Shown in pieces: positions 175 through 42,947 of a DNA stretch of 64,000 nucleotides. This DNA is from Escherichia phage SME50. The stretch's first letter is position 1, and each line of letters opens with the position of its first letter. The stretch lies in the sequence record MT887289.1; one strand, 5' to 3'. The translations under genes were made by a program, and so were the position numbers. The notes under the pieces were generated by a model, which ran no database searches, was not told the origin of the DNA, and saw only the letters and a list, made by a program, of their open reading frames with translations.

Positions 175-416
175 TGACTTATGTAATTTACTCCAAAACT
201 GGATGCCCTCAGTGTGAGACTGCAAAGAATTTTGCAAAAGCTCGTGGTATTGACCATGTTGTGAGAATGTTGGGGCAGGATTATGAACTGTCAGACCTGA
301 TTGATATTGCACAGATGCCAGTTCGTCAGATGCCATTCATCATGAAAACTGACGGTCAAAACCTAAAACCTGTTGGAACGCTACAGAATTTTATGGCAGA
401 GGTGAATAATGCTTAA
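174..416 (+). CDS. glutaredoxin/NrdH-like thioredoxin-fold redoxin
   Basis: 80-aa ORF with CPQC active-site motif near the N-terminus; immediately upstream of nrdD. Confidence 0.7.
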   Translation: MTYVIYSKTGCPQCETAKNFAKARGIDHVVRMLGQDYELSDLIDIAQMPVRQMPFIMKTDGQNLKPVGTLQNFMAEVNNA

Positions 417-615
417 ACGCCTTTGGGAAGGTTTGGTTGTTGATGCACCAGCTATTGTGATTGGTATGCTTGTTGTTAACCTATTTACTGATTTTGAACA
501 AGGTTCGTTGTTCGGAGCCATGTTACTATGGGTTATCTTTGAAATATTAGAAATACAGTTAGGCATCACTGAAAAACTAAGAGAACTTGTTTCGAAGTTT
601 TCTAAAAAGATTTAA
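409..615 (+). CDS. small hydrophobic (membrane) protein
   Basis: 68-aa ORF, largely hydrophobic, overlaps previous stop. Confidence 0.4.
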   Translation: MLKRLWEGLVVDAPAIVIGMLVVNLFTDFEQGSLFGAMLLWVIFEILEIQLGITEKLRELVSKFSKKI

Positions 616-663
616 AATGAAAGGGTCTCTTCGGAGACCTTTTTAGCATGTAAAGGGGCAATA

Positions 664-1863
664 ATGAACAAAGTACAGATTATTAAAAAGAACGGCTCAC
701 TTGAAGAACCTGATATCAAAAAAGTTTTAGCAGCAGTAACTAAGTCAGCTAACAGAGTTGGGTATAAAGAACTCCCACCAGATGTTACCCAAGCTCTTGA
801 GTCAGCATTTATGAGGATTCTGGTAAAGTCCACTAAGCAGAATAATTTGCTCATCTCGGTAAACGATATTCACAGTATTGTTGAAGGTGCTTTGGCAGAA
901 GTCAATCACGAGATTTATGAGTCTTACTCAACATACAGAAATTACCGTAAAGAGGTTGCTCAAAATTGGGATGAGCTTTACCAAAAGACTAAAGACACAC
1001 TCTTCTTAGGTGACCGTGAAAACGCTAACTTTGACAGTAGTTTAATTTCTACAAAAGGCTCAATTATTCGTGGTTACCTGACTAAAGAAATCTTTAAACA
1101 GTACCATTTAACACCAGAGGAACTTGAAGCCATTGAAAAAGGGTTTATCTACATCCATGACTTAAGAGACCTAATTTTTGGTGGGATTAACTGTTGCCTG
1201 TTCGACATTGGTAAAGTACTGAAAGGTGGCTTTGAAATGTCTGGCATCGAATACTGTGAACCAAAGTCTGTACTGTCAGCCTTACAAGTTATCGGTGATG
1301 TAGTTCTTTCAGCAACTGCACAGCAATTTGGTGGATTTACTTTAGCAGAGATTGATAAGGTGCTTGTACCGTATGCTAAGAAGTCTCTACGCTATCATGC
1401 TGAGAAAGCAGCATCTTACGGTATTCCTAAAGAACATTACCATAATTATGTCATGGAGCAGCTACAGATTGAATTAACTCAAGGTTTCCAGTCACTAGAG
1501 ATGAAGCTAAATACTGTACCTTGCAGCCGTGGTGATTTCGCATTCACAACTTTAACATTTGGTTTACTTGACTCAGACATGTCTAATGAAGACAACCGAC
1601 TACAATACATGATTGCAAACACCATTCTTGATGTTCGCATGAATGGACAAGGTAAGAGCAAGAAGCCTGTTGTATTCCCTAAACTGGTTTATATTCATGA
1701 CCAGAAGAGACACGATGAGAATATCTGTCAAGGTCAACTGTACAGTAAAGCTATTGAGTGTTGCTCTAAAGCAATGTATCCAGATTTCTTAAGCGTATCT
1801 GGTCATGGTGCTGTAGCAGAGGCTTTTGAGCGTTCTGGCAAGGTCATTTCACCGATGGGTTAA
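664..1863 (+). CDS. nrdD: anaerobic ribonucleoside-triphosphate reductase, N-terminal portion (exon 1 or upstream fragment)
   Basis: 399-aa ORF with ATP-cone-like N-terminus (VQIIKKNGSLEEPDIKKV); the glycyl-radical C-terminal part is a separate downstream ORF. Confidence 0.8.
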   Translation: MNKVQIIKKNGSLEEPDIKKVLAAVTKSANRVGYKELPPDVTQALESAFMRILVKSTKQNNLLISVNDIHSIVEGALAEVNHEIYESYSTYRNYRKEVAQNWDELYQKTKDTLFLGDRENANFDSSLISTKGSIIRGYLTKEIFKQYHLTPEELEAIEKGFIYIHDLRDLIFGGINCCLFDIGKVLKGGFEMSGIEYCEPKSVLSALQVIGDVVLSATAQQFGGFTLAEIDKVLVPYAKKSLRYHAEKAASYGIPKEHYHNYVMEQLQIELTQGFQSLEMKLNTVPCSRGDFAFTTLTFGLLDSDMSNEDNRLQYMIANTILDVRMNGQGKSKKPVVFPKLVYIHDQKRHDENICQGQLYSKAIECCSKAMYPDFLSVSGHGAVAEAFERSGKVISPMG

Positions 1864-2640
1864 CAAGCTCTATAGCTCATCTAAAACGTGCCTAAACAGG
1901 GAAACTCTACAGGTGTAGACAATCCTGTGCTAAATGATGTACGATGTAAGAAACTATATAAAATAGGAGTATTACATGCCAAATTATCATGTTACTGAGG
2001 ACGGAAGAGTCTTTAGGAAAAATGGTGTAGAACTTACGCAGTGGAAATCCAACACTGGTTATATGAAAGTAAGGTTTTATGGAAGGAAGAATCGTGACAT
2101 GTATGTCCATAGGTTAGTTGCTGAAAAGTATGTACCTAACCCTAACAATCTTCCAATTGTAAAACACAAAGATGATAACAAACTGAACAACCATGCTTCT
2201 AACTTAGAATGGGGAACTCATTCTGAGAATGTTAAAGAAGGCTATGAGAATGGTTGCTACAAGTTTTGTAAGCGTTCATATGCTGTGAAGGCTACACATA
2301 AAGTGACAAAAGAAGTTATTGTTGCTAAGTCAATACGAGAGTTATCTAATGTACTTGGGTATAATCGCAAGACTATCTCTTCAATATTGAAGGGTGTAAA
2401 AGAGTATAATAACTTTGAACATGATTTTGAGTACATTTAAATGCCGAACGACTAACCGTGATGAATGTAGCGGTGTAGGGTCAAGCGACTCGAAATGGTA
2501 CGCTACTTAGAAATAAGTAGAAGATATAGTCTGGACTTACTGGTGACAGTAAGCAGCTTGAATAAAGCGGGGTAAGCGTAGCGAACTTACCTGAACAACA
2601 AGTGTAGAGCGTTTTTATCACCATATCTTAATGAGGATGG
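1864..2640 (+). mobile_element. intervening sequence in nrdD carrying an HNH endonuclease ORF (putative group I intron or free-standing homing-endonuclease insertion); 3' boundary approximate
   Basis: About 0.8 kb separates two NrdD halves in the same orientation; contains HNH ORF 1976-2440; NrdD-like frame is open from 2582. Confidence 0.45.
1976..2440 (+). CDS. HNH homing endonuclease (AP2-like C-terminal region)
   Basis: 154-aa ORF with His/Asn-rich HNH-type motif (HKDDNKLNNHASNLEWGTHSEN); located inside nrdD. Confidence 0.75.
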   Translation: MPNYHVTEDGRVFRKNGVELTQWKSNTGYMKVRFYGRKNRDMYVHRLVAEKYVPNPNNLPIVKHKDDNKLNNHASNLEWGTHSENVKEGYENGCYKFCKRSYAVKATHKVTKEVIVAKSIRELSNVLGYNRKTISSILKGVKEYNNFEHDFEYI

Positions 2641-2683
2641 GGAAGAGTTCTATGTTGGTCGTGCTAACATTGGTGCTGTATCT

Positions 2684-3550
2684 TTGAACTTGCCTATGAT
2701 TTACCAGTATTCTAAAGAGAATGGTTTAGATTTCTGGAAAGAGCTTGATAAGTACCTAGAGATGATTCGCAGCTTCCACAAGAAACGCTACGAAATGATT
2801 GCTAATATGCCAGCAAGTTCTAACCCTCTTGCATTCACACAAGGTGGTCTGTACAAAGGGACTAAGAAACCTACTGATAAGGTTGGTTGGGATATTGTGA
2901 AGTCTTTCACAGCTTCTTTTGGGGTTACTGCTCTTGATGAGTTGTCGGTTCTTGCTGAGGGTAAACGACTCCATGAAGTTGGAAGCTATAGTTTTGCATA
3001 CGATGTTCTGGCATACATTAACATGAAAACTGAGGAGTTTAAAAATGAAGATGGCTTCTTATATGCCGTCTATGGTACTCCAGCAGAATCACTTTGCGGG
3101 ACTCAGCTAAAACAGTTCAGAGATATGTTTGGCGTTATCAAAGGTGTTTCTGATAAGGAATACTTTACAAACAGTTTCCATATGAATGTTGCAGCGGATA
3201 TCTCACCATTTGAGAAGCAGGACTTAGAAGAACCATTCTTCCATATCTGTAGAGGCGGCAGAATCCAGTATGTGAGGGTAGCTAACCCAGAAAACTTACC
3301 AGCACTTAAAAGTTGTATTACAAGAGGCATGTTGAAGGGTTTTTATCAGGGACTTAACTTTGACTTAGCAATCTGTGAACATTGTGGTAACAGACCAAAG
3401 GCTGATGTTGAAGAATGTGAGGTTTGCCATTCACATGACATCTCTGTGATTAACAGGGTGTGTGGTTATCTTGGATGGACTAAGATTAAAGGTGAATCAC
3501 GAATGAACGATGCAAAAATTGCTGAGATTCGTGACAGGGTTTCTATGTAA
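2684..3550 (+). CDS. nrdD: anaerobic ribonucleotide reductase, C-terminal glycyl-radical portion (true exon start probably upstream, about 2600-2640)
   Basis: Zn-ribbon CEHCGNRP...CEVCHSHD and glycyl radical motif RVCGYLGW near the C-terminus; track ORF begins at a TTG. Confidence 0.8.
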   Translation: MNLPMIYQYSKENGLDFWKELDKYLEMIRSFHKKRYEMIANMPASSNPLAFTQGGLYKGTKKPTDKVGWDIVKSFTASFGVTALDELSVLAEGKRLHEVGSYSFAYDVLAYINMKTEEFKNEDGFLYAVYGTPAESLCGTQLKQFRDMFGVIKGVSDKEYFTNSFHMNVAADISPFEKQDLEEPFFHICRGGRIQYVRVANPENLPALKSCITRGMLKGFYQGLNFDLAICEHCGNRPKADVEECEVCHSHDISVINRVCGYLGWTKIKGESRMNDAKIAEIRDRVSM

Positions 3551-3558
3551 AACTTGAC

Positions 3559-3598
3559 AAGGTGGTGTGAGTCTTGATAGGCTTACATCACCTTTTTT
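3559..3598 (+). terminator. rho-independent terminator after nrdD
   Basis: Hairpin AAGGTGGTGTGA...ACATCACCTT followed by TTTTTT. Confidence 0.5.
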
Positions 3599-3704
3599 AT
3601 TGGATGTTAGATATGGCAGAGAGCATCATGGGCCTGTTCATAGGTTCTGTCTTACTGGGGTTCTTTTTAGGACTCTCTTATTGTGAGTTGAGAGATAAGT
3701 TAAA

Positions 3705-3905
3705 ATGTTTAAAATATCAAAAACGTTGATATACATACTTCACATTCTAATCTTCTTTTTTGGAGTTAGTGTTATGGTATGGGGTTTTTCAGACCCACAA
3801 TGGAGTTTCGCATATCATGGTCAGATGGATTTATGGTCATGCTTCAAACCATTTTTAGGGTTAGCTATAGCATTCAGTGCATTACCAACTAGGGTGAAAT
3901 TATGA
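3705..3905 (+). CDS. small membrane protein
   Basis: 66-aa ORF with hydrophobic segment ILHILIFFFGVSVMVWGF. Confidence 0.4.
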   Translation: MFKISKTLIYILHILIFFFGVSVMVWGFSDPQWSFAYHGQMDLWSCFKPFLGLAIAFSALPTRVKL

Positions 3906-4332: not shown

Positions 4333-4818
4333 ATGAATTACATGGAGATTCGACCATTCGACACAGCTAATGGTGAAGGGGTTCGTGTAAGCCTCTTCGT
4401 AGCTGGCTGCAAACATCACTGTGAAGGCTGCTTTAACAGGGAGTCTTGGAAGTTTAATGCTGGTAAAGAGTTTACTTATGCAAACCTCTACGGCATCATT
4501 AAATTAATGGATGATGAGGCCATCAGTGGGTTGTCAATACTTGGTGGAGAACCTCTTGATGACAGAAACATTCAAGAAGTCACCAACATATGTAAACGTA
4601 TTAAAACTGTTTACCCAGAAAAGTCTATCTGGCTCTGGACAGGTTTTCAGTTACACGAAAAAATTCATCTAGATGTGATGAAATATGTTGACGTGGTGAT
4701 TGATGGTAAGTATGATTCTTCTAAACCAACAGTTAAACCATATCGTGGTTCTGATAACCAAAACCTCTGGAGAAAAGAGTATGGATGGCAAGGCGATTGT
4801 CAATGGCGAGCAGAGTAA
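4333..4818 (+). CDS. nrdG: anaerobic ribonucleotide reductase activating protein (radical SAM)
   Basis: CKHHCEGC (CxxxCxxC) radical-SAM cluster motif near N-terminus; about 160 aa; adjacent to nrdD. Confidence 0.85.
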   Translation: MNYMEIRPFDTANGEGVRVSLFVAGCKHHCEGCFNRESWKFNAGKEFTYANLYGIIKLMDDEAISGLSILGGEPLDDRNIQEVTNICKRIKTVYPEKSIWLWTGFQLHEKIHLDVMKYVDVVIDGKYDSSKPTVKPYRGSDNQNLWRKEYGWQGDCQWRAE

Positions 4819-37107: not shown

Positions 37108-37184
37108 CTCTGTTTAGCTCAGCTTGGTAGAGCGTTCCGTTTGGGGCGGTAAGGCCGGAGGTTCAAGTCCTCCAACAGAGACCA
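37108..37184 (+). tRNA. tRNA-Pro(TGG)
   Basis: Manual fold: acceptor CTCTGTT/AACAGAG, D-arm GCTC...GAGC, anticodon loop TTTGGGG, T-arm GGAGG-TTCAAGT-CCTCC, CCA encoded. Confidence 0.7.
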
Positions 37185-37191
37185 AATTAAT

Positions 37192-37269
37192 GTTCCAGTA
37201 GACAAAACGGTAAAGTCACCACTCTTTCAAAGTGGATATTTGAGGGTTCAAATCCCTTCTGGAACGCCA
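37192..37269 (+). tRNA. tRNA-Glu(TTC)
   Basis: Acceptor GTTCCAG/CTGGAAC, anticodon stem CCACT/AGTGG with loop CTTTCAA, T-loop TTCAAAT, CCA encoded. Confidence 0.7.
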
Positions 37270-37276
37270 GTTTTGA

Positions 37277-37349
37277 CAGAAGACCAATTGCAGCAAACTT
37301 AATCTTATTCATCTGACACGAAATCGGACAAAGAAGATATTTGGTCTGG
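37277..37349 (+). ncRNA. conserved inverted-repeat element A (CAGAAGACCAA ... TTGGTCTGG)
   Basis: 7-bp closing helix; conserved 5' block CAGAAGACCnnnTTGCAGCAAA; immediately follows a tRNA 3' end. Confidence 0.35.
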
Positions 37350-37360
37350 TCATTAAGAAT

Positions 37361-37437
37361 TGCGGGTATAGAGAAAGGGCGTCTCACATGTCTCATTAGC
37401 ATGGTATCGGCAGGTTCGACTCCTGCACCCGCCTCCA
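37361..37437 (+). tRNA. tRNA-Met(CAT), possibly initiator-type
   Basis: Anticodon stem CATGT/GCATG with loop CTCATTA; T-arm GCAGG-TTCGACT-CCTGC; position 1-72 unpaired (T/C); CCA encoded. Confidence 0.6.
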
Positions 37438-37443
37438 ATTTTG

Positions 37444-37503
37444 CAGAAGACCGTATTCAGCAACAAAATACTTTTTGCGGATAAAAGAAAAAACACGGTC
37501 TGG
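37444..37503 (+). ncRNA. conserved inverted-repeat element B (CAGAAGACCGT ... ACGGTCTGG)
   Basis: 7-bp closing helix around an A/T-rich loop; shares the 5' block with elements A, C, D. Confidence 0.35.
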
Positions 37504-37514
37504 CAATGTATTAA

Positions 37515-37591
37515 GGTTAGGAAGCACATAAGGTATGTGCGGTCGCCTGTTAAGCGAATGGCACAGGGTTCGAATCCCTGACTAACCGCAA
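37515..37591 (+). tRNA. tRNA-Asn(GTT)
   Basis: D-arm GCAC...GTGC, anticodon loop CTGTTAA, T-arm CAGGG-TTCGAAT-CCCTG; 3' end reads CAA not CCA. Confidence 0.6.
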
Positions 37592-37600
37592 AATTTAAAT

Positions 37601-37688
37601 GTGTCGTTATCCCGTAGATGGTAGCGGTGGGGACTGTAAATCCCTTGTCATTGAGACTCGGTAGGTTCGACTCCTACACGGCACACCA
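37601..37688 (+). tRNA. tRNA-Tyr(GTA), class II
   Basis: Acceptor GTGTCGT/ACGGCAC, anticodon stem GGGGA/TCCCT with loop CTGTAAA, long variable arm, T-arm GTAGG-TTCGACT-CCTAC, CCA encoded. Confidence 0.7.
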
Positions 37689-37710
37689 ACACTTAGCGAG
37701 ATACTTAGTT

Positions 37711-38139
37711 ATGAGAGATGAAGTATACAAATCACAACTTGGTATGAGTTTAGGAACTGCACAAAACAGACTAGTAAAAGATTTGCTATTTGATTTTATA
37801 TGTAAAACAAATCAAAATAGATGTTTTCAGTGCGGAAAGGAAATGACTAGGGATGATTTCTCTATCGAGCATAAGATTCCGTGGAGACATAGTGAAAATG
37901 CAAAAGAGCTTTTCTTTTCACTAGATAACATTTCTTATAGTCATCTTAAATGCAACATGAAAGCAGCAAGACCAGCACAGATAAGTGAAAGAAAACCTAA
38001 AACAATTAAACACGGAACTGCGTATAGCTATTACAAAGGCTGTAGATGCGATGCGTGTAGGCTGGCTAAGAATGCTGAGAGTAGAAGAAACTATAGTCCA
38101 GAAAGACGTAGGAAGAAGTATATAAGAAATGGTACATAG
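37711..38139 (+). CDS. HNH homing endonuclease inside the tRNA array
   Basis: CFQCGK...EHKIPW...N...H HNH motif; start moved to ATG 37711 because the track ORF start (37618) overlaps tRNA-Tyr. Confidence 0.65.
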   Translation: MRDEVYKSQLGMSLGTAQNRLVKDLLFDFICKTNQNRCFQCGKEMTRDDFSIEHKIPWRHSENAKELFFSLDNISYSHLKCNMKAARPAQISERKPKTIKHGTAYSYYKGCRCDACRLAKNAESRRNYSPERRRKKYIRNGT

Positions 38140-38144
38140 GTTTT

Positions 38145-38220
38145 GGGGTATTAGTTTAGACGGGTAAAATACTGGATTGTCTCTCCTGAGCCGCGAGTTC
38201 GATTCTCGCATACCTCGCCA
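38145..38220 (+). tRNA. tRNA-Asp(GTC)
   Basis: Acceptor GGGGTAT/ATACCTC, anticodon loop TTGTCTC (one stem mismatch), T-arm GCGAG-TTCGATT-CTCGC, CCA encoded. Confidence 0.55.
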
Positions 38221-38281
38221 ATTTTGAGAGGGCTATTTAGCCCCTCCCTTAAAGAGTTCTTACGAGTATTCTTTAAAGGAG

Positions 38282-38355
38282 CAGAAGACCAAATTCAGCA
38301 AGTTACTTAAAATTTCAAGCCAATTTAATTTTGAAAAATTTAAAACTTGGTCTGG
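38282..38355 (+). ncRNA. conserved inverted-repeat element C (CAGAAGACCAA ... TTGGTCTGG)
   Basis: Same family as A/B/D; A/T-rich interior. Confidence 0.35.
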
Positions 38356-38368
38356 CTCAACAAATTTA

Positions 38369-38500
38369 CAGAAGACCGTTTACAGCAAAACTTAAACAAT
38401 CTATTTCTCCGGTAAAGAAAAGGCGAAGGTTCGATTCCTTCACTCGGCAGATGTCGAGTTGGTGTAATGGTAGCACTTAAGATGATAAACAACGGTCTGG
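38369..38500 (+). ncRNA. candidate Y-RNA-like ncRNA: circularly permuted tRNA-like module closed by an 8-bp terminal helix (element D)
   Basis: Order 5'-helix, CTTAA, T-arm GAAGG-TTCGATT-CCTTC, acceptor-3' ACTCGGC, acceptor-5' GTCGAGT, D-arm GTGT-AATGGTA-GCAC, TTAAG, 3'-helix; the two acceptor halves are complementary to each other. Confidence 0.45.
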
Positions 38501-38507
38501 TAATTGT

Positions 38508-38639
38508 CTTTGTAGATAAGTTATTAAGCTTACCTGTGAGTATGCGACCACAAAGGGTGAAAGGGTAAATTCTAGATTTAAACCCAACAAGGCACATCGC
38601 TACAGACCTTAAGCAAGTCTGGGTAGCTTATCTACAAAG
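38508..38639 (+). ncRNA. structured element bounded by a perfect 13-bp inverted repeat (CTTTGTAGATAAG ... CTTATCTACAAAG)
   Basis: 13-bp perfect IR encloses about 105 nt including an internal CAGACC...GTCTGG hairpin; no ORF. Confidence 0.35.
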
Positions 38640-38649
38640 ATAATTTAAT

Positions 38650-38725
38650 GGAAGTGTAGCAGAATGGTGATGCGGCAGACTTTTAATCTGACAGGCGATG
38701 GGTTCGAATCCCTCCACTTCTACCA
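38650..38725 (+). tRNA. tRNA-Lys(TTT)
   Basis: Acceptor GGAAGTG/CACTTCT, anticodon loop CTTTTAA, T-loop TTCGAAT, CCA encoded; T-stem has only 3 clean pairs. Confidence 0.55.
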
Positions 38726-38729
38726 AAAT

Positions 38730-38806
38730 GGTTCAGTCGCAGATAAGGTAATGCAGGGGTTTCATAAGCCCTATGAATGTGGGTTCGATTCCCATCTGAA
38801 CCTCCA
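38730..38806 (+). tRNA. tRNA with CAT anticodon (elongator Met or Ile2)
   Basis: Acceptor GGTTCAG/CTGAACC, anticodon stem GGGGT/GCCCT with loop TTCATAA, T-arm GTGGG-TTCGATT-CCCAT, CCA encoded. Confidence 0.6.
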
Positions 38807-38808
38807 AT

Positions 38809-38884
38809 GCTGTGAAAGCACATATGGATGTGCATTCGGCTGATAACCGAAAGGAAGAAGGTTCGAATCCTTCTCACAGTACCA
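38809..38884 (+). tRNA. tRNA-Ile(GAT)
   Basis: D-arm GCAC...GTGC, anticodon stem TTCGG/CCGAA with loop CTGATAA, T-arm GAAGG-TTCGAAT-CCTTC, CCA encoded. Confidence 0.7.
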
Positions 38885-38899
38885 ATTTCAATAAAGTTG

Positions 38900-38928
38900 T
38901 TGACATTGAGATGTGACCACTTTATAGT
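38900..38928 (+). promoter_or_regulatory. sigma70-like promoter within the tRNA array
   Basis: TTGACA - 17 nt - TATAGT. Confidence 0.55.
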
Positions 38929-39250
38929 AACTAAAATACTTCATAATATGTATAATTCAAACACCAATACATGAGCGTTAGACGTAACACAATGTGGGGA
39001 AATTTGTTGTACATATTCTGAATAGTTTTCGTTGCGTAGCGTCTATTTTGCAAATTTAAAATAAATGCAAACGACAATGTTTTTCTGGCAGTAGCTTGAT
39101 AGGCTAAACACCAGTGAGGTCTTCCAATCCCTCATCAAAGAATTTGGCGTACTCGCCCACGGTATGATTAATAAGGTGGGCAACATTCTAAAGGGTATCC
39201 CTTATGGGGCTTGGCTTAAATGCAATGAGTACCCTTTAAAATGTTAATTA

Positions 39251-39332
39251 CGGGGCGTATCTCAGCGGTCTTCTAAACCGCCGTTAACCGAGTAAGTGGA
39301 GTATGCGGGTTCGAGTCCTGCCGCCTCGACCA
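39251..39332 (+). tRNA. atypical tRNA-like gene (good acceptor/T-arm and a TCT-containing stem-loop, but no recognisable D-arm); isotype uncertain
   Basis: Acceptor CGGGGCG/CGCCTCG, T-arm GCGGG-TTCGAGT-CCTGC, CCA encoded; internal hairpin GCGGT-CTTCTAA-ACCGC. Confidence 0.35.
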
Positions 39333-39346
39333 ATTTTGGATGAAAT

Positions 39347-39695
39347 CATGAAGACTTGTATTAGGTGCAAACTTAGCAAGGATGAAAGTGATTTCTACAT
39401 GAAAGATGGTAGGAGAACTCATTCATACTGTAAAAAGTGTGTTAATGAGCAAACCATAGAAAGACAAAGAGCACTTAAACTTTCAGCTATTGAGTACAAA
39501 GGTGGTGTTTGTCAGGATTGTGGTAAAAGGTATCATCCAGCAGTGTATGACTTCCATCATTTGAATCCTTCAGAGAAAGATTTTAACATTGCTCATAGAA
39601 GAAGTCTTAAGTTCTCTCAGGAGCTTAAGAACGAACTTGACAAATGTGTTTTGCTATGTTCAAATTGCCATAGGGTAAGACATGCAAAGTATTAG
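39347..39695 (+). CDS. HNH endonuclease (zinc-finger plus HNH) inside the tRNA array
   Basis: CIRC...CKKC zinc-finger then HHLNP...CVLLCSNCHRVRH; start moved to ATG 39347 because the track ORF start overlaps the upstream tRNA-like gene. Confidence 0.65.
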
Positions 39696-39832
39696 TTAGC
39701 AGATTGCTTAGACGACCTTATCGGGTCTCCGTGTAAGGAGGTGGTCTGTATCTCATGTTTTCCAGAACATGTAAATAATCTGAGAAGGGGCTTTACAGTG
39801 TTGCGAAAATACGGTAAGCTTCGAATTATAGT

Positions 39833-39915
39833 GTGGGACGATGTTAAGACTCTAAGGCATGAGCAACGGCCTCCAAAACCGTTTCAAAGGGGTTCAACTC
39901 CTCCGTCCCATGCCA
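39833..39915 (+). tRNA. tRNA-Trp(CCA) (D-region longer than canonical)
   Basis: Acceptor GTGGGAC/GTCCCAT, anticodon loop CTCCAAA as in bacterial tRNA-Trp, T-loop TTCAACT, CCA encoded. Confidence 0.45.
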
Positions 39916-39928
39916 AAGTCTTATTAGG

Positions 39929-40016
39929 GGTAGGTAGCGGCTAATGGCAGCCAAACAGTCTTGAAAACTGTTGCCACTGTAGAGATACGGTGAGGGTTCG
40001 ACTCCTTTACTTACCG
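39929..40016 (+). tRNA. tRNA-Ser(TGA), class II
   Basis: Acceptor GGTAGGT/ACTTACC, anticodon stem ACAGT/ACTGT with loop CTTGAAA, long variable arm, T-loop TTCGACT; CCA not fully encoded. Confidence 0.6.
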
Positions 40017-40175
40017 CCTAATAAGATTTTACACCGTCCATGCTTGCTCGCATTTTCGGTTTATCCCTCGTGTATTGTCGTACACACTGATAAAGCACCT
40101 AGTAGGTGTCACGGAGAAGAGATAATATCAAGCTCTCCAAAGGTTCTAGTCACCGGATTAAACAAGACTATGCAA

Positions 40176-40195
40176 AGACCTAAATAGGTCTTTTT
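40176..40195 (+). terminator. rho-independent terminator
   Basis: AGACCT-AAAT-AGGTCT hairpin followed by TTTTT. Confidence 0.5.
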
Positions 40196-40274
40196 AGAGG
40201 GCTTCTAAGGTTATTACAGCTTGTTGTGGAACCTTGTTGCTTAGGTTCTTAGAAGTTCTCTAAAAAGATTTAAT

Positions 40275-40352
40275 GGGAGATTGACGGTAATTGGTAAACC
40301 TACCATCCTTAGAAGTTGGTGTTTGAGGGTTCGAATCCCTTGTCTCCTACCA
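40275..40352 (+). tRNA. tRNA with anticodon TAG (Leu-type anticodon) but short variable arm; identity uncertain
   Basis: Acceptor GGGAGAT/GTCTCCT, anticodon loop CTTAGAA, T-arm GAGGG-TTCGAAT-CCCTT, A73, CCA encoded. Confidence 0.45.
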
Positions 40353-40359
40353 AATTAAT

Positions 40360-40435
40360 GCAGGTGTAGCAAAATGGTTATGCGGCTGACTCTTAATCAG
40401 TAAGACGATGGGTTCAATTCCCTCCACCTGTACCA
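40360..40435 (+). tRNA. tRNA-Lys(CTT)
   Basis: Paralog of the 38650 tRNA: acceptor GCAGGTG/CACCTGT, anticodon stem GCTGA/TCAGT with loop CTCTTAA, T-loop TTCAATT, CCA encoded. Confidence 0.55.
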
Positions 40436-40439
40436 AATT

Positions 40440-40515
40440 GGGGTCATAGTTTATATGGTTAAAATTCGAGTTTTGCAAACTTGGGAACTGAGTTCAATTC
40501 TCAGTGACTCCACCA
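40440..40515 (+). tRNA. tRNA-Ala(TGC)
   Basis: Acceptor GGGGTCA/TGACTCC, anticodon loop TTTGCAA, T-arm CTGAG-TTCAATT-CTCAG, CCA encoded. Confidence 0.65.
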
Positions 40516-40521
40516 ATTAGT

Positions 40522-40596
40522 GCATCCATAGTTTAAACGGGAAAATTACAGTCTTCCAAACTGAGGTTGAGGGTTCGATTCCCTCTGGATGCTCCA
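40522..40596 (+). tRNA. tRNA-Gly(TCC)
   Basis: Acceptor GCATCCA/TGGATGC, anticodon loop CTTCCAA, T-arm GAGGG-TTCGATT-CCCTC, CCA encoded. Confidence 0.65.
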
Positions 40597-40603
40597 AATT
40601 AAT

Positions 40604-40679
40604 GCTCCTATCGTATAATTGGCTATTACGGTTGCCTTGTAAGCAACTTATCAGGGTTCGAATCCTTGTGGGAGCACCA
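40604..40679 (+). tRNA. tRNA-Thr(TGT)
   Basis: Acceptor GCTCCTA/TGGGAGC, anticodon stem GTTGC/GCAAC with loop CTTGTAA, T-arm CAGGG-TTCGAAT-CCTTG, CCA encoded. Confidence 0.7.
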
Positions 40680-40682
40680 ATT

Positions 40683-40770
40683 CAGAGGTCAAGTGAAAGA
40701 CCGCTTTGAGTCAACTGAAGACCGTAACAAATTCCACGGAGTTGAGTTAGCGGCACAACTTCAGACCTCT
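40683..40770 (+). ncRNA. inverted-repeat element E (CAGAGGTC ... GACCTCT) containing a GAAGACC block
   Basis: 7-bp closing helix and internal hairpins; immediately follows tRNA-Thr. Confidence 0.3.
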
Positions 40771-40775
40771 TTCAT

Positions 40776-40850
40776 ACTCGCTTAGTTTATATGGTAAAAC
40801 ACCACCCTTACAAGATGAAGAAAAAGGTTCAAGTCCTTTAGTGAGTACCA
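40776..40850 (+). tRNA. tRNA-Val(TAC) (weak anticodon stem)
   Basis: Acceptor ACTCGCT/AGTGAGT, D-arm GTTT...AAAC, anticodon loop CTTACAA, T-arm AAAGG-TTCAAGT-CCTTT, CCA encoded. Confidence 0.45.
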
Positions 40851-40851
40851 T

Positions 40852-40929
40852 GTTCCAGTATCCCAATTGGCAGAGGATGCAAGCTCAAACCTTGTACTAG
40901 TGACGGTTCGAATCCGTCTTGGAACACCA
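40852..40929 (+). tRNA. tRNA with anticodon CAA (Leu-type anticodon) but short variable arm; identity uncertain
   Basis: Acceptor GTTCCAG/TTGGAAC, anticodon stem GCAAG/CTTGT with loop CTCAAAC, T-arm GACGG-TTCGAAT-CCGTC, A73, CCA encoded. Confidence 0.5.
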
Positions 40930-40934
40930 ATTTT

Positions 40935-41010
40935 GCAGGATTAGTTCAAATGGATAGAGCAACAGTCTACGAAGCTGTTAATAGGGGTTCGAATCCCTTA
41001 TCCTGCGCCA
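40935..41010 (+). tRNA. tRNA-Arg(ACG)
   Basis: Acceptor GCAGGAT/ATCCTGC, D-arm GTTC...GAGC, anticodon stem ACAGT/GCTGT with loop CTACGAA, T-loop TTCGAAT, CCA encoded. Confidence 0.7.
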
Positions 41011-41029
41011 ATTTAAAGAGGCTATTTAG

Positions 41030-41587
41030 ATGAGATATTTGAAGTATGCTTCATGGATTTTCTTAGCTTTGTTAGAACCATTAGCAGCAATCTTAGCAGT
41101 TATCTTAGCACCTTTCGTAGTTCCATTTTACAGTGAGAAGAAAGGACACTTACCTTTCGGATTTAGATGGATGGAAACTTATGACAACCCGATTGATGGT
41201 GATGAAGGTCATGTCAAACGATGGGCTAAGATTAGAAAGATTGGTAAGCTCGGTGTCTATATGCAGAGAGTCGGATGGCTCTGGAGAAACAAAGCTTATA
41301 ACTTCTCCTACCATGTGTTAGGAAGAGATGTAAAAGATGTTACTAAGTGGAAAGGTAATATCAACGTAAGTTCTGACCCTGAAGATAATCAGACAGGTTA
41401 TCTCTTAATGTGGAACAGCAATGCTTGGGGATTATTCGCTTTTGTACCATCAATTAAAATCTTTGGTAAACAATTCTACTGGAGAATTTATGTTGGATGG
41501 AAACTTAAAAGTGTTGTCCCAGAAGAAAGAGCATTCTCAAGGGAAAGAGTTATGTTGGCATTCTTTATTCATCCACTAAGAAAGTAA
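41030..41587 (+). CDS. membrane protein (N-terminal TM helix) embedded in the tRNA array
   Basis: 185-aa ORF; hydrophobic N-terminus WIFLALLEPLAAILAVILAPFVVPF; Trp-rich remainder. Confidence 0.5.
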   Translation: MRYLKYASWIFLALLEPLAAILAVILAPFVVPFYSEKKGHLPFGFRWMETYDNPIDGDEGHVKRWAKIRKIGKLGVYMQRVGWLWRNKAYNFSYHVLGRDVKDVTKWKGNINVSSDPEDNQTGYLLMWNSNAWGLFAFVPSIKIFGKQFYWRIYVGWKLKSVVPEERAFSRERVMLAFFIHPLRK

Positions 41588-41595
41588 AGATTTAA

Positions 41596-41671
41596 AGGGG
41601 ATTAGTTTACAAGGTTAAAACCTCGGTCTTTGAAATCGAAGAAGTTGGTTCAATTCCAACACCCCCCGCCA
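41596..41671 (+). tRNA. tRNA-Gln(TTG)
   Basis: Anticodon stem TCGGT/ATCGA with loop CTTTGAA, T-arm GTTGG-TTCAATT-CCAAC, CCA encoded; acceptor has two mismatches. Confidence 0.5.
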
Positions 41672-41673
41672 AT

Positions 41674-41752
41674 GCTCCATTACTCCAATTGGCAGAGAGG
41701 CCAGACTTAAAATCTGTGTTATGTATCGGTTCGAATCCGATATGGAGTACCA
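41674..41752 (+). tRNA. tRNA with anticodon TAA (Leu-type anticodon) but short variable arm; identity uncertain
   Basis: Acceptor GCTCCAT/ATGGAGT, anticodon loop CTTAAAA, T-arm ATCGG-TTCGAAT-CCGAT, A73, CCA encoded. Confidence 0.5.
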
Positions 41753-41757
41753 AATTT

Positions 41758-41833
41758 AGCGGTATAGCATAACTGGCAATGCAGCAGTCTCTGAAGCTGT
41801 CTTATTAAGGTTCAAATCCTTATGCCGCTGCCA
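41758..41833 (+). tRNA. tRNA-Gln(CTG)
   Basis: Acceptor AGCGGTA/TGCCGCT, D-arm GCAT...ATGC, anticodon loop CTCTGAA, T-arm TAAGG-TTCAAAT-CCTTA, CCA encoded. Confidence 0.6.
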
Positions 41834-41864
41834 CTTCTAAGGATTCTTACGAGAGTCCTTAAAT

Positions 41865-41940
41865 GTGGCCTTATCATAAATGGTAATGACCCATGCTGTG
41901 AACATGGTCTATACGGGTTCAAATCCCGTAGGTCACCCCA
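41865..41940 (+). tRNA. tRNA-His(GTG)
   Basis: Acceptor GTGGCCT/AGGTCAC, D-arm TCAT...ATGA, anticodon stem CCATG/CATGG with loop CTGTGAA, discriminator C, CCA encoded. Confidence 0.7.
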
Positions 41941-41945
41941 ATTTA

Positions 41946-42022
41946 TAGTCCAAGTAGCTTATATGGTTAAAGCGCGTGTCTGAAAAACATGAGAAGAGGG
42001 TTCAAATCCCACTGGACTACCA
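41946..42022 (+). tRNA. tRNA-Phe(GAA)
   Basis: Acceptor TAGTCCA/TGGACTA, D-arm GCTT...AAGC, anticodon stem CGTGT/ACATG with loop CTGAAAA, T-loop TTCAAAT; 3' register ambiguous by 1 nt. Confidence 0.55.
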
Positions 42023-42038
42023 ATTTCAAAGGTGCTTA

Positions 42039-42773
42039 ATGAAAGAGATGACAGAACAAGGTAAGGAGATTTTTAATCTCTTAAAAACTGGTAGAGGGTT
42101 TTCTAATCCCCTTATTACTGGTGCAGCAGTTCTCGGTGGAACCGTAGCTGCCTCTACATCACTTGTAAGCTCTATTAGCTCTGTAACAGACCCTACAATA
42201 AAGGATAAGCTTATTGCTGCTGGACTTACAACAGTTCTGCTTAATAGCTTTACAACGAGTCTGACAAGCACTACATCAACTACTAAGACACTGACAGATT
42301 ACGGTCAAAAGTCCATTGATGAGTTTTCATCACGTATGCAGGTAGCAAAAGGGTATTCCAATGTTATGGGTGCAGCAGGAGAGCAAGTTGGTTGTACACC
42401 ATTTAGTGGTATTATGGGTGTTGCTACAGAGTACGGTCAAAAAGCTATTGACACAATTAACAGTACACTAGACGGTGTTAATGATGTATTAAGTGACTTA
42501 CAAGATGCTATTGACAAAGGTCTTGATACTGTTTCTGATTTAGCTAACCAAGCTGTTAGCAAGATTAATGAAGGTATCTCGAAGATTACAGCTTATGCAG
42601 ATGAAGTTGTGCAGATGATTGAAGAAGAAGCTGCCCTTATTGCAGAGTACCTTAAAACAAATATCAATGGGTTCTTAGCAGGTATCTTACCAGACTGGTT
42701 TGATGATGCTTGTAAAACTGGTGTAATTGATACTATTGCAACACCAGAAATGAAGAACGCATTACAGAAATAA
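42039..42773 (+). CDS. hypothetical Ser/Thr-rich protein upstream of the packaging genes
   Basis: Start moved to ATG 42039 (MKEMTEQ) because the track ORF start (41976) overlaps tRNA-Phe. Confidence 0.45.
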   Translation: MKEMTEQGKEIFNLLKTGRGFSNPLITGAAVLGGTVAASTSLVSSISSVTDPTIKDKLIAAGLTTVLLNSFTTSLTSTTSTTKTLTDYGQKSIDEFSSRMQVAKGYSNVMGAAGEQVGCTPFSGIMGVATEYGQKAIDTINSTLDGVNDVLSDLQDAIDKGLDTVSDLANQAVSKINEGISKITAYADEVVQMIEEEAALIAEYLKTNINGFLAGILPDWFDDACKTGVIDTIATPEMKNALQK

Positions 42774-42774
42774 T

Positions 42775-42867
42775 GGAAGATTAACCCTAAAAGGTAAGGG
42801 AGCAGTTTGCTAAACTGCCAGTAGCTGAGAAATCGGTGTACCAGTTCAAGTCTGGTATCTTCCTCCA
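42775..42867 (+). tRNA. tRNA-Ser(GCT), class II
   Basis: Acceptor GGAAGAT/ATCTTCC, anticodon stem GCAGT/ACTGC with loop TTGCTAA, long variable arm, T-arm ACCAG-TTCAAGT-CTGGT, CCA encoded. Confidence 0.7.
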
Positions 42868-42871
42868 ATTT

Positions 42872-42947
42872 GAATCCGTGACAGAAATGGATATGTGCCT
42901 GTCTGCAAAACAGGTTTATAAGGGTTCGAGTCCCTTCGGATTCTCCA
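42872..42947 (+). tRNA. tRNA-Cys(GCA)
   Basis: Acceptor GAATCCG/CGGATTC, anticodon stem CCTGT/ACAGG with loop CTGCAAA, T-arm AAGGG-TTCGAGT-CCCTT, CCA encoded. Confidence 0.7.

Follow-up and report, generated by a model that had tools for sequence, protein, structure and literature searches.

A predicted T4-type group I intron with an HNH endonuclease gene at the catalytic cysteine codon of nrdD in Escherichia phage SME50

The interrupted nrdD locus

The sequence analysed here (the window) is a stretch of 64,000 nt from Escherichia phage SME50 (MT887289.1), read as one strand, 5' to 3'. Its nrdD gene, for a class III ribonucleotide reductase (RNR), lies in two parts with an HNH endonuclease reading frame between them. 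A preliminary description placed the N-terminal half of NrdD at 664-1863, the HNH frame at 1976-2440, and the resumption of C-terminal NrdD coding at about 2582-2684. The first two assignments agree with the list of reading frames and with Pfam (HNH_3 for the endonuclease), the N-terminal frame stopping at 1861-1863. The third needs refinement: the frame does reopen at 2582, following a TAG at 2579-2581, but true coding resumes at the TGT at 2603. The main features, all on the + strand, are:

664..1860, +, nrdD exon 1: 399 codons for the ATP-cone and the N-terminal half of the class III RNR, last codons ...CCG ATG GGT (reading-frame list, Pfam, alignment)
1861..2602, +, putative group I intron (IA2, T4 td/sunY type): 742 nt (indel, partial RF00028 matches, covariation)
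1965..1969, +, Shine-Dalgarno sequence AGGAG: 6 nt 5' of the HNH start codon (sequence)
1976..2440, +, predicted intron-encoded HNH homing endonuclease, I-HmuI-like: 154 aa (Pfam HNH_3, PDB 1U3E)
2603..3550, +, nrdD exon 2: 315 codons plus stop, beginning at the catalytic Cys400 codon TGT (Pfam, structure alignment)
4333..4818, +, nrdG (activase), the functional partner of NrdD, given for context (Pfam Fer4_12 and Radical_SAM)

Terminator-like hairpins lie on both sides of nrdD, and a search of the intron for + strand terminators gave none. A promoter scan of 400-3800 gave 6 sites compared with 8.7 expected from shuffles, and thus no sign of an internal promoter.

The junction can be placed by alignment of the two halves to an uninterrupted NrdD, as the preliminary description had suggested, and the insert then occupies exactly 1861-2602. 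Intronless nrdD alleles of closely related Felixounaviruses are 92-98% identical to the window in the flanking exons. Those of EF202P1 and Felix O1, in which the site reads ...CACCGATGGGTTGCAGAGCCTTCTTATCTCC..., run straight through ...CCGATGGGT/TGCAGAGC... (the slash marks the insertion point), and the window is longer by exactly 742 bases. The interruption is therefore a real indel, and a chance arrangement is excluded. Placement is ambiguous by 1 nt because a T flanks both ends of the insert; the ambiguity is settled by the group I rules that the exon ends in U and the intron in G.

The insertion point separates the codons for Gly399 and Cys400 in the active-site motif PMG/CR. Removal of the insert restores this motif and gives a 714-aa NrdD in an uninterrupted frame (...VISPMG/CRAFLSPY...), with a predicted ligated exon junction of ...CCGAUGGGU/UGUAGAGCG... 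and a coding sequence that joins 664-1860 to 2603-3550. In Pfam, the exon 1 product matches the ATP-cone and positions 1-250 of the NRDD profile, and region 2603-3547 matches NRDD positions 264-560 and Gly_radical; exon 2 also encodes the C-terminal Cys cluster (CEHC...CEVC) and the glycyl-radical motif RVCGY. The joined protein aligns without gaps through PMGCR to PDB 9d3x, PDB 1h78 and the intronless alleles, and in the alignment Cys400 corresponds to Cys290 and Gly687 to Gly580 of T4 NrdD. The exons of intron carriers are under strong purifying selection, with synonymous:nonsynonymous differences of 112:11 and 139:20.

The halves might be joined as protein, by an intein, or by ribosomes hopping over the insert, and PMC3653736 and bioRxiv 2022.08.31.505936 describe such devices in phage nucleotide-metabolism genes. 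Both readings are refuted by the reading frames, and the probability left to them is negligible. The insert length is not divisible by 3 (742 mod 3 = 1, so that exons 1 and 2 are in different frames), the exon 1 frame runs into a stop as soon as it enters the insert, and the HNH frame is a different one with its own Shine-Dalgarno sequence and start. A Pfam search found no intein domains, and 742 nt far exceeds the 50-nt gap of the bypass described in bioRxiv 2022.08.31.505936.

Alternatively, a free-standing HNH cassette could have left a gene in two pieces, with NrdD-a (399 aa) and NrdD-b (about 284-288 aa) assembling into an active reductase, as reported for nrdA, split by mobE, of Aeromonas phage Aeh1. 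Exon 1 does close at the in-frame stop at 1861-1863, two nrdD genes are annotated in most GenBank records and by Bardina et al. 2016 (PMC4837284), and the split Aeh1 nrdA, according to PMC3653736, has no intron or ribozyme, makes two polypeptides and reportedly keeps its function. However, the first ATG, GTG or TTG in the exon 2 frame is the TTG at 2684, followed by the ATG at 2696, and neither is preceded by a Shine-Dalgarno sequence. The Cys400 codon (2603-2605) lies upstream of every start codon in the second half, and the 27 codons at 2603-2683 that include it would be absent from both polypeptides. The non-coding flanks of the HNH gene bear on this alternative as well.

A group I core around the endonuclease gene

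The non-coding parts around the HNH reading frame can be folded into a complete IA2 group I core, including the P3/P7 pseudoknot. The predicted elements are as follows:

1855..1880, +, P1: exon AUGGGU (1855-1860) paired to the internal guide sequence GCUCAU (1875-1880); the wobble pair U1860.G1875 marks the 5' splice site
1868..1874, +, P10 guide CUCUAUA: pairs with UGUAGAG at 2603-2609, the first 7 nt of exon 2
1887..1935, +, 5' core strands and hairpins: P3 5' strand, P4, P5, P6 5' strand (sequence, MFE fold)
1887-1892 (5' strand) and 2497-2502 (3' strand), +, P3 (compensatory changes)
1897-1901 with 1923-1927, +, P4 (compensatory changes)
1906-1910 with 1915-1919, +, P5 (compensatory changes)
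1929-1930 (5' GC) and 2443-2444 (3' GC), +, P6, with the internal loop UAAAU
1936..2437, +, P6a: GAUGUAC 1936-1942 with GUACAUU 2431-2437 (sequence, MFE fold)
2441..2602, +, 3' core: P6 3' strand to the terminal G 2602, J8/7 = AAGAUA
2450-2454 with 2527-2531, +, P7
2455-2458 with 2471-2474, +, P7.1 (supported in the covarying alignment)
2478-2482 with 2487-2491, +, P7.2 (supported in the covarying alignment)
2503-2509 with 2514-2520, +, P8 (covariation)
2536-2542 with 2547-2553, +, P9 (covariation)
2556-2559 with 2565-2568, +, P9.1
2570-2576 with 2586-2592, +, P9.2

The endonuclease gene is housed in the P6a loop, its final codons forming the P6a 3' strand. With the ORF excised, the MFE fold independently gives P3, P4, P5, P6, P6a, P7.1, P7.2, P8, P9 and P9.2. 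In the Michel-Westhof classification, subgroup IA2 is defined by two extra helices, P7.1 and P7.2, that follow P7 and precede the P3 3' strand. Together with the similarity to the T4 introns, these helices assign the predicted intron to IA2 (T4 td/nrdD/nrdB type).

The splice sites carry the marks of a group I intron. The insert opens with UAA, where exon 1 meets an in-frame stop, and closes with ...CAACAAG, of which the last base is the terminal (omega) G at 2602. The U.G pair is present in P1, and P10 forms with the 3' exon, where its 7 bp (-5.7 kcal/mol) directly abut P1. The contiguous P10 and P1 guide makes 13 of 13 pairs, an arrangement that arose in 2 of 20000 shuffles. A synonymous tract in exon 2, TGT AGA GCG TTT TTA TCA, is linked to the presence of the intron and improves P10 pairing, exon 2 of the intronless type (UGCAGAG) giving -2.8 kcal/mol. 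This tract may also protect carriers against their own endonuclease.

Folding of P1-P9 by hand, a check that the preliminary description had proposed, allowed a complete core to be drawn, the P3-P9 part of which is consistent with the covariation in an alignment of 13 relatives. The alignment was made with MAFFT and the hand-drawn structure, the 5' and 3' halves being cut by hand, and its relatives are those findable by similarity. An nhmmer profile recovered the 5' halves of related introns from IMG/VR, and the starts of two 3' halves (L108 and L030) were set by hand; L069, which has an insert in L5, and L082 and L089, which have a very long P7.1, were excluded. On the 13 related introns, which include a T4-type td intron, the P3-P9 structure leaves 97% of 542 cells paired, compared with 37-44% when it is slid, a percentage somewhat favoured because the window sequence itself served for drawing the structure. 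Compensatory change occurs in 32 of 44 pairs (P3 6/6, P4 4/5, P8 7/7, P9 5/7), and none of 500 shuffles reached the observed values. P7 gives no covariation evidence because it is invariant in the alignment. The slid controls and the compensatory counts argue that the signal is not an artefact.

These results also bear on the two-polypeptide alternative raised above. The roughly 277 nt of non-coding flank is a conserved, covarying ribozyme core that a free-standing cassette would not need, and an allele without the ORF retains the entire core. With the catalytic cysteine codon ahead of any start and no Shine-Dalgarno sequence at 2684 or 2696, this alternative, which the preliminary description had also entertained, was set aside as very improbable.

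The putative group I intron is less readily seen by an Rfam search. At the gathering threshold, the whole 64-kb window gave tRNAs only, with no match to RF00028, the model that the preliminary description had named as a check. The window copy itself stays below the gathering score, but a local E-value scan gave partial matches on both halves (38.6 bits at 2373-2553 and 17.6 bits at 1896-1970; threshold 50), and the natural 316-nt ORF-less allele of phage ph2-2, whose core is 96-99% identical to that of the window, passes the same threshold with 55.0 bits (E 4.8e-12, model positions 1-253). The window copy falls short because of the 465-nt ORF in the P6a loop, which the model cannot span. A T4-type td intron was likewise missed at E<0.01 in a comparable Rfam scan. 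The whole-window E-value scan found no second group I intron in the 64 kb.

Read differently, the low score could mark a decayed intron that splices poorly, leaving nrdD a pseudogene or weakly expressed while the aerobic nrdAB covers dNTP supply. Felixounaviruses do also encode NrdAB (PMC3185647), and carriers of the intron are a minority. However, the ORF in L6a accounts for the score, neither exon is disrupted and each shows the strong purifying selection described above, and the helices of the catalytic core are all preserved, as are the U.G pair, the terminal G and P10. The core is also the best-conserved segment of the locus, with 95-99% identity compared with 81-95% for the exons; the 3' core (2441-2602) is 98-99% identical among intron-bearing Felixounaviruses, above the exons. 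Decay is thereby given little credence, about as little as the two-polypeptide arrangement.

The endonuclease and the alleles of the insert

The HNH reading frame matches Pfam HNH_3 over residues 43-86 (40.2 bits, cutoff 24.8) and PDB 1U3E (I-HmuI) with E 8.4e-10. Its C-terminus (residues 111-137) is NUMOD1-like in a weak match of 14.7 bits, under the 22.8 cutoff. Synonymous:nonsynonymous codon differences relative to its relatives are 19:7 and 30:10. By sequence, the predicted endonuclease resembles I-HmuI and not I-TevII. The AGGAG before the gene is the annotated ribosome binding site in phage Meda. A weak hairpin (-9.3 kcal/mol over 70 nt) overlaps this Shine-Dalgarno sequence.

The distribution of the insert among Felixounaviruses is sporadic. 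An evenly spaced sample of 60 of the 248 records contained 37 intronless alleles, 14 with the full intron and 8 of the ORF-less form, so that the intron is present in about 37% of those sampled (22 present, 37 absent). In phage ph2-2, a natural deletion of 1982-2407 has removed the ORF and left P6a intact and the whole core in place.

The annotation of nrdD is affected. A joined coding sequence is already given in two GenBank records; most records split nrdD into two genes, and the public start of the second gene is an ATG that omits the catalytic cysteine. This is the case in most Felixounavirus genomes, many of them from phages for therapy or biocontrol. Two papers (PMC3728262, PMC4837284) treat the locus as a split gene, broken by a homing endonuclease. 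No introns are reported in the paper on the genome of Felix O1, whose nrdD allele is intronless. A literature search found no paper describing the Felixounavirus nrdD insert as a group I intron or testing its splicing. The correct annotation would be a single joined nrdD coding sequence plus an intron-encoded endonuclease.

Proposed mechanism and relation to known introns

The core, its covariation, the P1, P10 and terminal G features, the ORF-less allele and 70-82% identity to T4 introns support the group I reading of the preliminary description. Very probably, 1861-2602 is a mobile T4-type IA2 group I intron in nrdD, and splicing is predicted. Catalysis, the activity and specificity of the endonuclease, and homing we infer.

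In the proposed mechanism, nrdD would be transcribed as a single pre-mRNA, and ribosomes on exon 1 would halt at the opening UAA of the intron. The RNA would fold into P1-P10, with the guide CUCUAUA-GCUCAU gripping both exons (U1860.G1875 in P1; UGUAGAG in P10). An external guanosine would attack after U1860, and the freed exon 1 would then attack after G2602, so that the joined exons form an mRNA encoding the 714-aa NrdD. The ORF in the P6a loop would make the I-HmuI-like HNH endonuclease, which in mixed infections may cut or nick intronless nrdD near ...CCGATGGGT/TGCAGAGC...; repair from an intron-bearing genome would copy the intron and a short stretch of flanking exon, which is homing. Such cleavage and homing have indirect support in the 37:22 polymorphism of the sample, in the conservation of the intron above that of the exons and in the exon 2 tract linked to the intron.

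Such an intron would be a further example of a mobile intron targeting the active-site codon of a phage ribonucleotide reductase. With three allelic states in hundreds of near-identical genomes, the locus is a possible dataset for the gain, decay and loss of introns and endonucleases. The understanding of group I introns is unchanged by these findings.

The intron of T4 nrdD (sunY) shares the host gene, the lack of P2, the presence of P7.1 and P7.2, and an identical guide hexamer, GCUCAU. In the 5' core (62 nt compared) the T4-type nrdD intron is 82% identical to that of the window, and in the 3' core (119 nt) 78%; both have the P7.1 sequence CC(G/C)UGAUGAAUGUA. The two differ in length (742 nt in the window, 1033 nt in T4) and in site: the T4 intron follows ...UAUGAGU, and the site in the window, after ...GAUGGGU (PMG/C), is about 119 codons further downstream. 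They differ also in the ORF, which in T4 lies in the 3' part, past a contiguous core, and encodes I-TevII, of the GIY-YIG family (PMC2988022), whereas the window ORF, for an HNH protein, is placed in the P6a loop.

The intron of T4 td (I-TevI) has its ORF looped out from P6a with the last codons forming the P6a 3' strand, and starts with an in-frame UAA right after ...GGGU, both as in the window. Identity is 79% in the 5' core and 73% over 162 nt of the 3' core and P9.1/P9.2 tail, and the differences in P3, P4, P8 and P9 are compensatory. Unlike the window intron, it lies in a thymidylate synthase gene and has a P2 hairpin, a GIY-YIG endonuclease and another guide sequence.

A tentative origin, which we consider possible though on balance doubtful, is that the window intron is a recombinant relative of the T4 nrdD intron that moved to a second nrdD site by way of the same 6-nt guide, GCUCAU, which base-pairs with AUGAGU in T4 and AUGGGU in the window. 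Reverse splicing is one conceivable route for the move, and selection following illegitimate repair another. The GIY-YIG gene would since have given way to an HNH gene of the I-HmuI type, located in P6a like the td ORF. On this reading, a single site in more than 240 genomes of the genus would display all three stages of the homing cycle: empty, intron with endonuclease, and intron minus endonuclease.

I-HmuI, from the DNA polymerase intron of Bacillus phage SPO1, is a nicking enzyme. The window ORF aligns to it over residues 3-115, and the HNH motif region HKD.NK.NN...NL.W.T is kept; the similarity is distant, the lengths differ (174 aa compared with 154 aa for the window ORF) and the target gene is another. 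Like the window ORF, I-HmuI is encoded inside a group I intron of a phage gene (PMC2988022).

In Aeh1 nrdA/mobE, an RNR gene is likewise broken by an HNH gene and annotated as two ORFs. The window differs in having a complete group I core, and in that its second half is not translatable alone with the catalytic Cys.

The second nrdD intron of Vibrio phage F89 g2 (OZ195773.1) comes from a distant phage lineage and, unlike the window intron, has a longer P7.2 and P8 and a further intron upstream in nrdD. It nevertheless occupies the same site (..YMG/CRSLL), starts with UAA and has the guide GCUCAU; its 3' core is 73% identical to that of the window, and its HNH ORF, in the same position, is 39% identical over the full length.

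The interrupted nrdD gene and its alleles

Many Felix O1-like myoviruses (genus Felixounavirus) share 92-97% identity with the window over 600-3600, Salmonella phage SP116 being the top match at 97.3%. Locally, glutaredoxin is followed by a small membrane ORF, nrdD, small ORFs and nrdG.

Features of the nrdD region (domains from Pfam)
174-416: glutaredoxin
664-1863: ORF matching an ATP-cone and NRDD profile positions 1-250
1976-2440: ORF for an HNH_3 protein
2603-3547: NRDD profile positions 264-560 and the glycine-radical domain
4333-4818: nrdG

These matches bear out the N-terminal NrdD ORF to 1863 and the intervening HNH ORF of the preliminary description. Its NrdD-like frame from about 2582-2684 is present too, with one refinement: the frame is open from 2582 and its earliest possible start codon is TTG 2684, and the coding match, and exon 2, begin at 2603. 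On each side of nrdD stands a GC-rich hairpin with a T run behind it, at 624-639 (GGTCTCTTCGGAGACCTTTTT, upstream) and at 3559-3594 (a 16-bp stem, downstream), which suggests that nrdD, intron included, may be its own transcription unit; a search for a + strand terminator inside the intron found none. Elsewhere in the window, 24 tRNA genes above the Rfam threshold are clustered at 37108-42944 (+), and a long-arm tRNA candidate at 39928-40016 scores 36.9 bits with the tRNA-Sec model, below the threshold of 47.

A 600-nt query, 1561-1860 joined to 2603-2902, matched 248 phage records, and the allele was typed in 60 evenly spaced among these.

Allele states in the 60 records
No interruption in the 600 nt (Felix O1 and EF202P1 among them): 37
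About 742 nt extra: 14
About 316 nt extra: 8
Partial: 1

Multiple alignment places the insert at exactly 1861-2602, with intronless alleles running from ...CCGATGGGT directly into TGCAGAGC... across the junction. In the 316-nt form, that of phage ph2-2, this element has lost 1982-2407 in frame, and with it almost the whole HNH ORF; the flanking non-coding sequence is untouched.

With 1860 joined to 2603, the frame encodes 714 aa (...VISPMG/CRAFLSPY..., the slash marking the junction), and this product aligns without interruption to the class III reductase structures 9d3x (E 2e-77) and T4 NrdD 1h78 (E 2e-75). Cys400, with which exon 2 opens, is aligned to Cys290 of T4 NrdD, the catalytic cysteine, and Gly687 to Gly580, the glycyl-radical site. 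The preliminary description had also allowed for NrdD being made as two polypeptides, in the style of Aeh1 nrdA/mobE. Such a product would be missing Cys400 and the next 26 residues, its second half has no ribosome binding site, and both the conserved ribozyme and the ORF-less allele would be left without a reason, making a split gene highly improbable. An intein or bypass is ruled out by the reading frames.

The ribozyme core

Helices were assigned on the window by comparison with the T4-type td intron.

Elements of the intron core
1855-1860 (AUGGGU) / 1875-1880 (GCUCAU): P1, with U1860.G1875
1868-1874 (CUCUAUA) / 2603-2609 (UGUAGAG): P10
1887-1892 / 2497-2502: P3
1897-1901 / 1923-1927: P4
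1906-1910 / 1915-1919: P5
GC / GC: P6
1936-1942 / 2431-2437: P6a, its loop holding the ORF
2450-2454 / 2527-2531: P7
P7.1 and P7.2: both present
2503-2509 / 2514-2520: P8, with a GAAA loop
P9, P9.1 and P9.2: all present
2602: terminal G

P2 is absent. All nested helices are recovered in the MFE fold when the ORF is swapped for a tetraloop. When the first 40 bases of the intron were shuffled 20000 times, only 2 shuffles gave a contiguous guide with 6/6 pairs to the exon 1 end and 7/7 to the exon 2 start.

At the Rfam gathering threshold no group I intron match is found at the window copy. A local scan with the group I model RF00028 gives hits on both sides of the ORF, at 2373-2553 (38.6 bits, E 5e-8, including the J8/7-P7 sequence GAAGAUAUAGUCU) and at 1896-1970 (17.6 bits, P3-P6). 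The window copy falls below threshold because the ORF interrupts the model; the natural ORF-less allele passes, with 55 bits against a threshold of 50.

Covariation was assessed over 13 sequences: the window, T4-type td, the intron of Vibrio phage F89 and ten metagenomic introns, the IMG/VR relatives being gathered by a conserved-motif scan and their 5' halves located with a small profile. In this structure 97% of cells are paired; sliding the 3' partners by 1-3 columns lowers the figure to 37-44%. Compensatory changes occur in 32 of 44 pairs. These values are to be read with halves cut by hand, relatives picked by similarity and a structure drawn on the window sequence. None of 500 shuffles reached the observed covariation values. 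Most of the signal comes from P3, P8, P7.1, P4 and P9; P7 is invariant.

The motif CTCGAAA-N(20-50)-GATATAGTC has a td-like P7/P7.2 context in 72 of 122 cases among the IMG/VR matches listed (L010-L129), several of which lack an ORF; hence T4-type IA2 introns are frequent in viral metagenomes.

Selection, possible co-conversion and the HNH gene

Identity to the window among intron-bearing Felixounaviruses
3' core: 98-99%
5' core: 95-97%
HNH ORF: 89-94%
Flanking exons: 81-95%

Differences from the window in the nrdD exons of intron carriers are almost only synonymous (112:11 and 139:20), which argues that nrdD is maintained; since maintenance requires joined exons, the exons would be joined in these phages. 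A decayed, non-splicing intron is hard to reconcile with this purifying selection, with the intact core or with its high conservation, and is most unlikely. The preliminary finding is real, and of its two options the group I intron, upheld by the RF00028 hits, core helices, covariation and restored frame, is very probably the correct one.

The first 20 nt of exon 2 (2603-2622) carry a synonymous signature, TGT AGA GC(G/A) TTT TTA TCA, in 6/6 intron-bearing alleles examined (TGT AGA GCG TTT TTA TCA in the window). The corresponding stretch in intronless alleles of the Felix type, about a dozen of them taken from IMG/VR and two from GenBank, reads TG(C/T) AGA GC(C/T) TTC TT(A/G) TC(T/C). Past about 20 nt the window changes over to the sequence of intronless EF202P1, which suggests the end of a co-conversion tract of that length. 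The TGT of the signature adds one P10 pair (-5.7 vs -2.8 kcal/mol).

The HNH ORF encodes 154 aa behind a Shine-Dalgarno AGGAG 6 nt upstream. It is homologous to the intron-encoded nicking endonuclease I-HmuI (PDB 1U3E), to which it aligns over residues 3-115 at E 8e-10 with a conserved motif region, and has a NUMOD1-like C-terminus scoring below threshold. The gene looks functional because its codon differences from two relatives are mostly synonymous (19:7 and 30:10). In BPS17W1, BPS15S6, BPS17S6, NJ12 and SUT_S720 the region matching 600-3600 holds one more insert, ~575 bp long and labelled a second (MobE-like) homing endonuclease, which the window lacks. 'Campylobacter phage A126' (MG065668.1) has a Felixounavirus-type nrdD (93% identity) with the ORF-less intron, and the 140-kb 'Campylobacter phage A140' (MG065674.1) an HNH ORF 47% identical to that of the window; at least the A126 record is probably mislabelled or a mixed assembly.

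Earlier annotation and related introns

No introns are reported in the Felix O1 genome paper (PMC3185647), and the nrdD allele of that phage is intronless. Homing endonucleases within genes and a nrdD called 'split' were described by Moreno Switt et al. 2013 and Bardina et al. 2016, neither of which names an intron; a 2023 paper listed Rfam 'introns' in another Felixounavirus. The intron is already recognised by annotators: among the records examined, only phages Meda (2018) and JohannRWettstein (BASEL collection, 2021) have nrdD as a two-piece joined CDS in GenBank, and the BASEL paper used comparative genomics to identify intron boundaries. Our literature search found neither an experimental splicing test nor an RNA description for the insert. 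Most GenBank records of relatives annotate the 3' half as a separate gene; in UAB_Phi87 this has 284 aa, equivalent to a start at ATG 2696, which leaves out the catalytic Cys codon 2603-2605. The value of the finding lies mainly in annotation correction and in a natural three-state homing dataset.

The closest core is that of the T4 nrdD (sunY) intron (51/62 nt in the 5' part, 93/119 nt in the 3' core), which shares with the window intron the lack of P2, an identical P7.1 sequence and the guide hexamer GCUCAU. The T4-type intron lies at another site, after ...UAUGAGU, about 119 codons upstream, its junction after GAGU being set by group I rules and homologous NrdD sequences. The same guide serves RB59 (T4-type) and the window (1875-1880) at two nrdD sites, with exon ends AUGAGU and AUGGGU, and this would agree with a move from one site to another under the constraint of guide pairing. 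Other features are td-like: the ORF in the P6a loop, its final codons forming the P6a 3' strand, an in-frame UAA as first intron codon and the P9.1-P9.2 tail. In Vibrio phage F89 g2 the exact PMG/C site is occupied by a related intron, with the same guide, a UAA start and an HNH ORF 39% identical to that of the window over its full length. The nrdD of this phage (OZ195773.1, 206-1365 and about 1870-2688) holds two group I introns, both with an HNH ORF of their own, the other lying after ...LQFG (window NrdD residue ~222). Judged from its sequence, the insert is typical of phage group I introns, carrying a putative homing endonuclease and lying in a ribonucleotide reductase gene.
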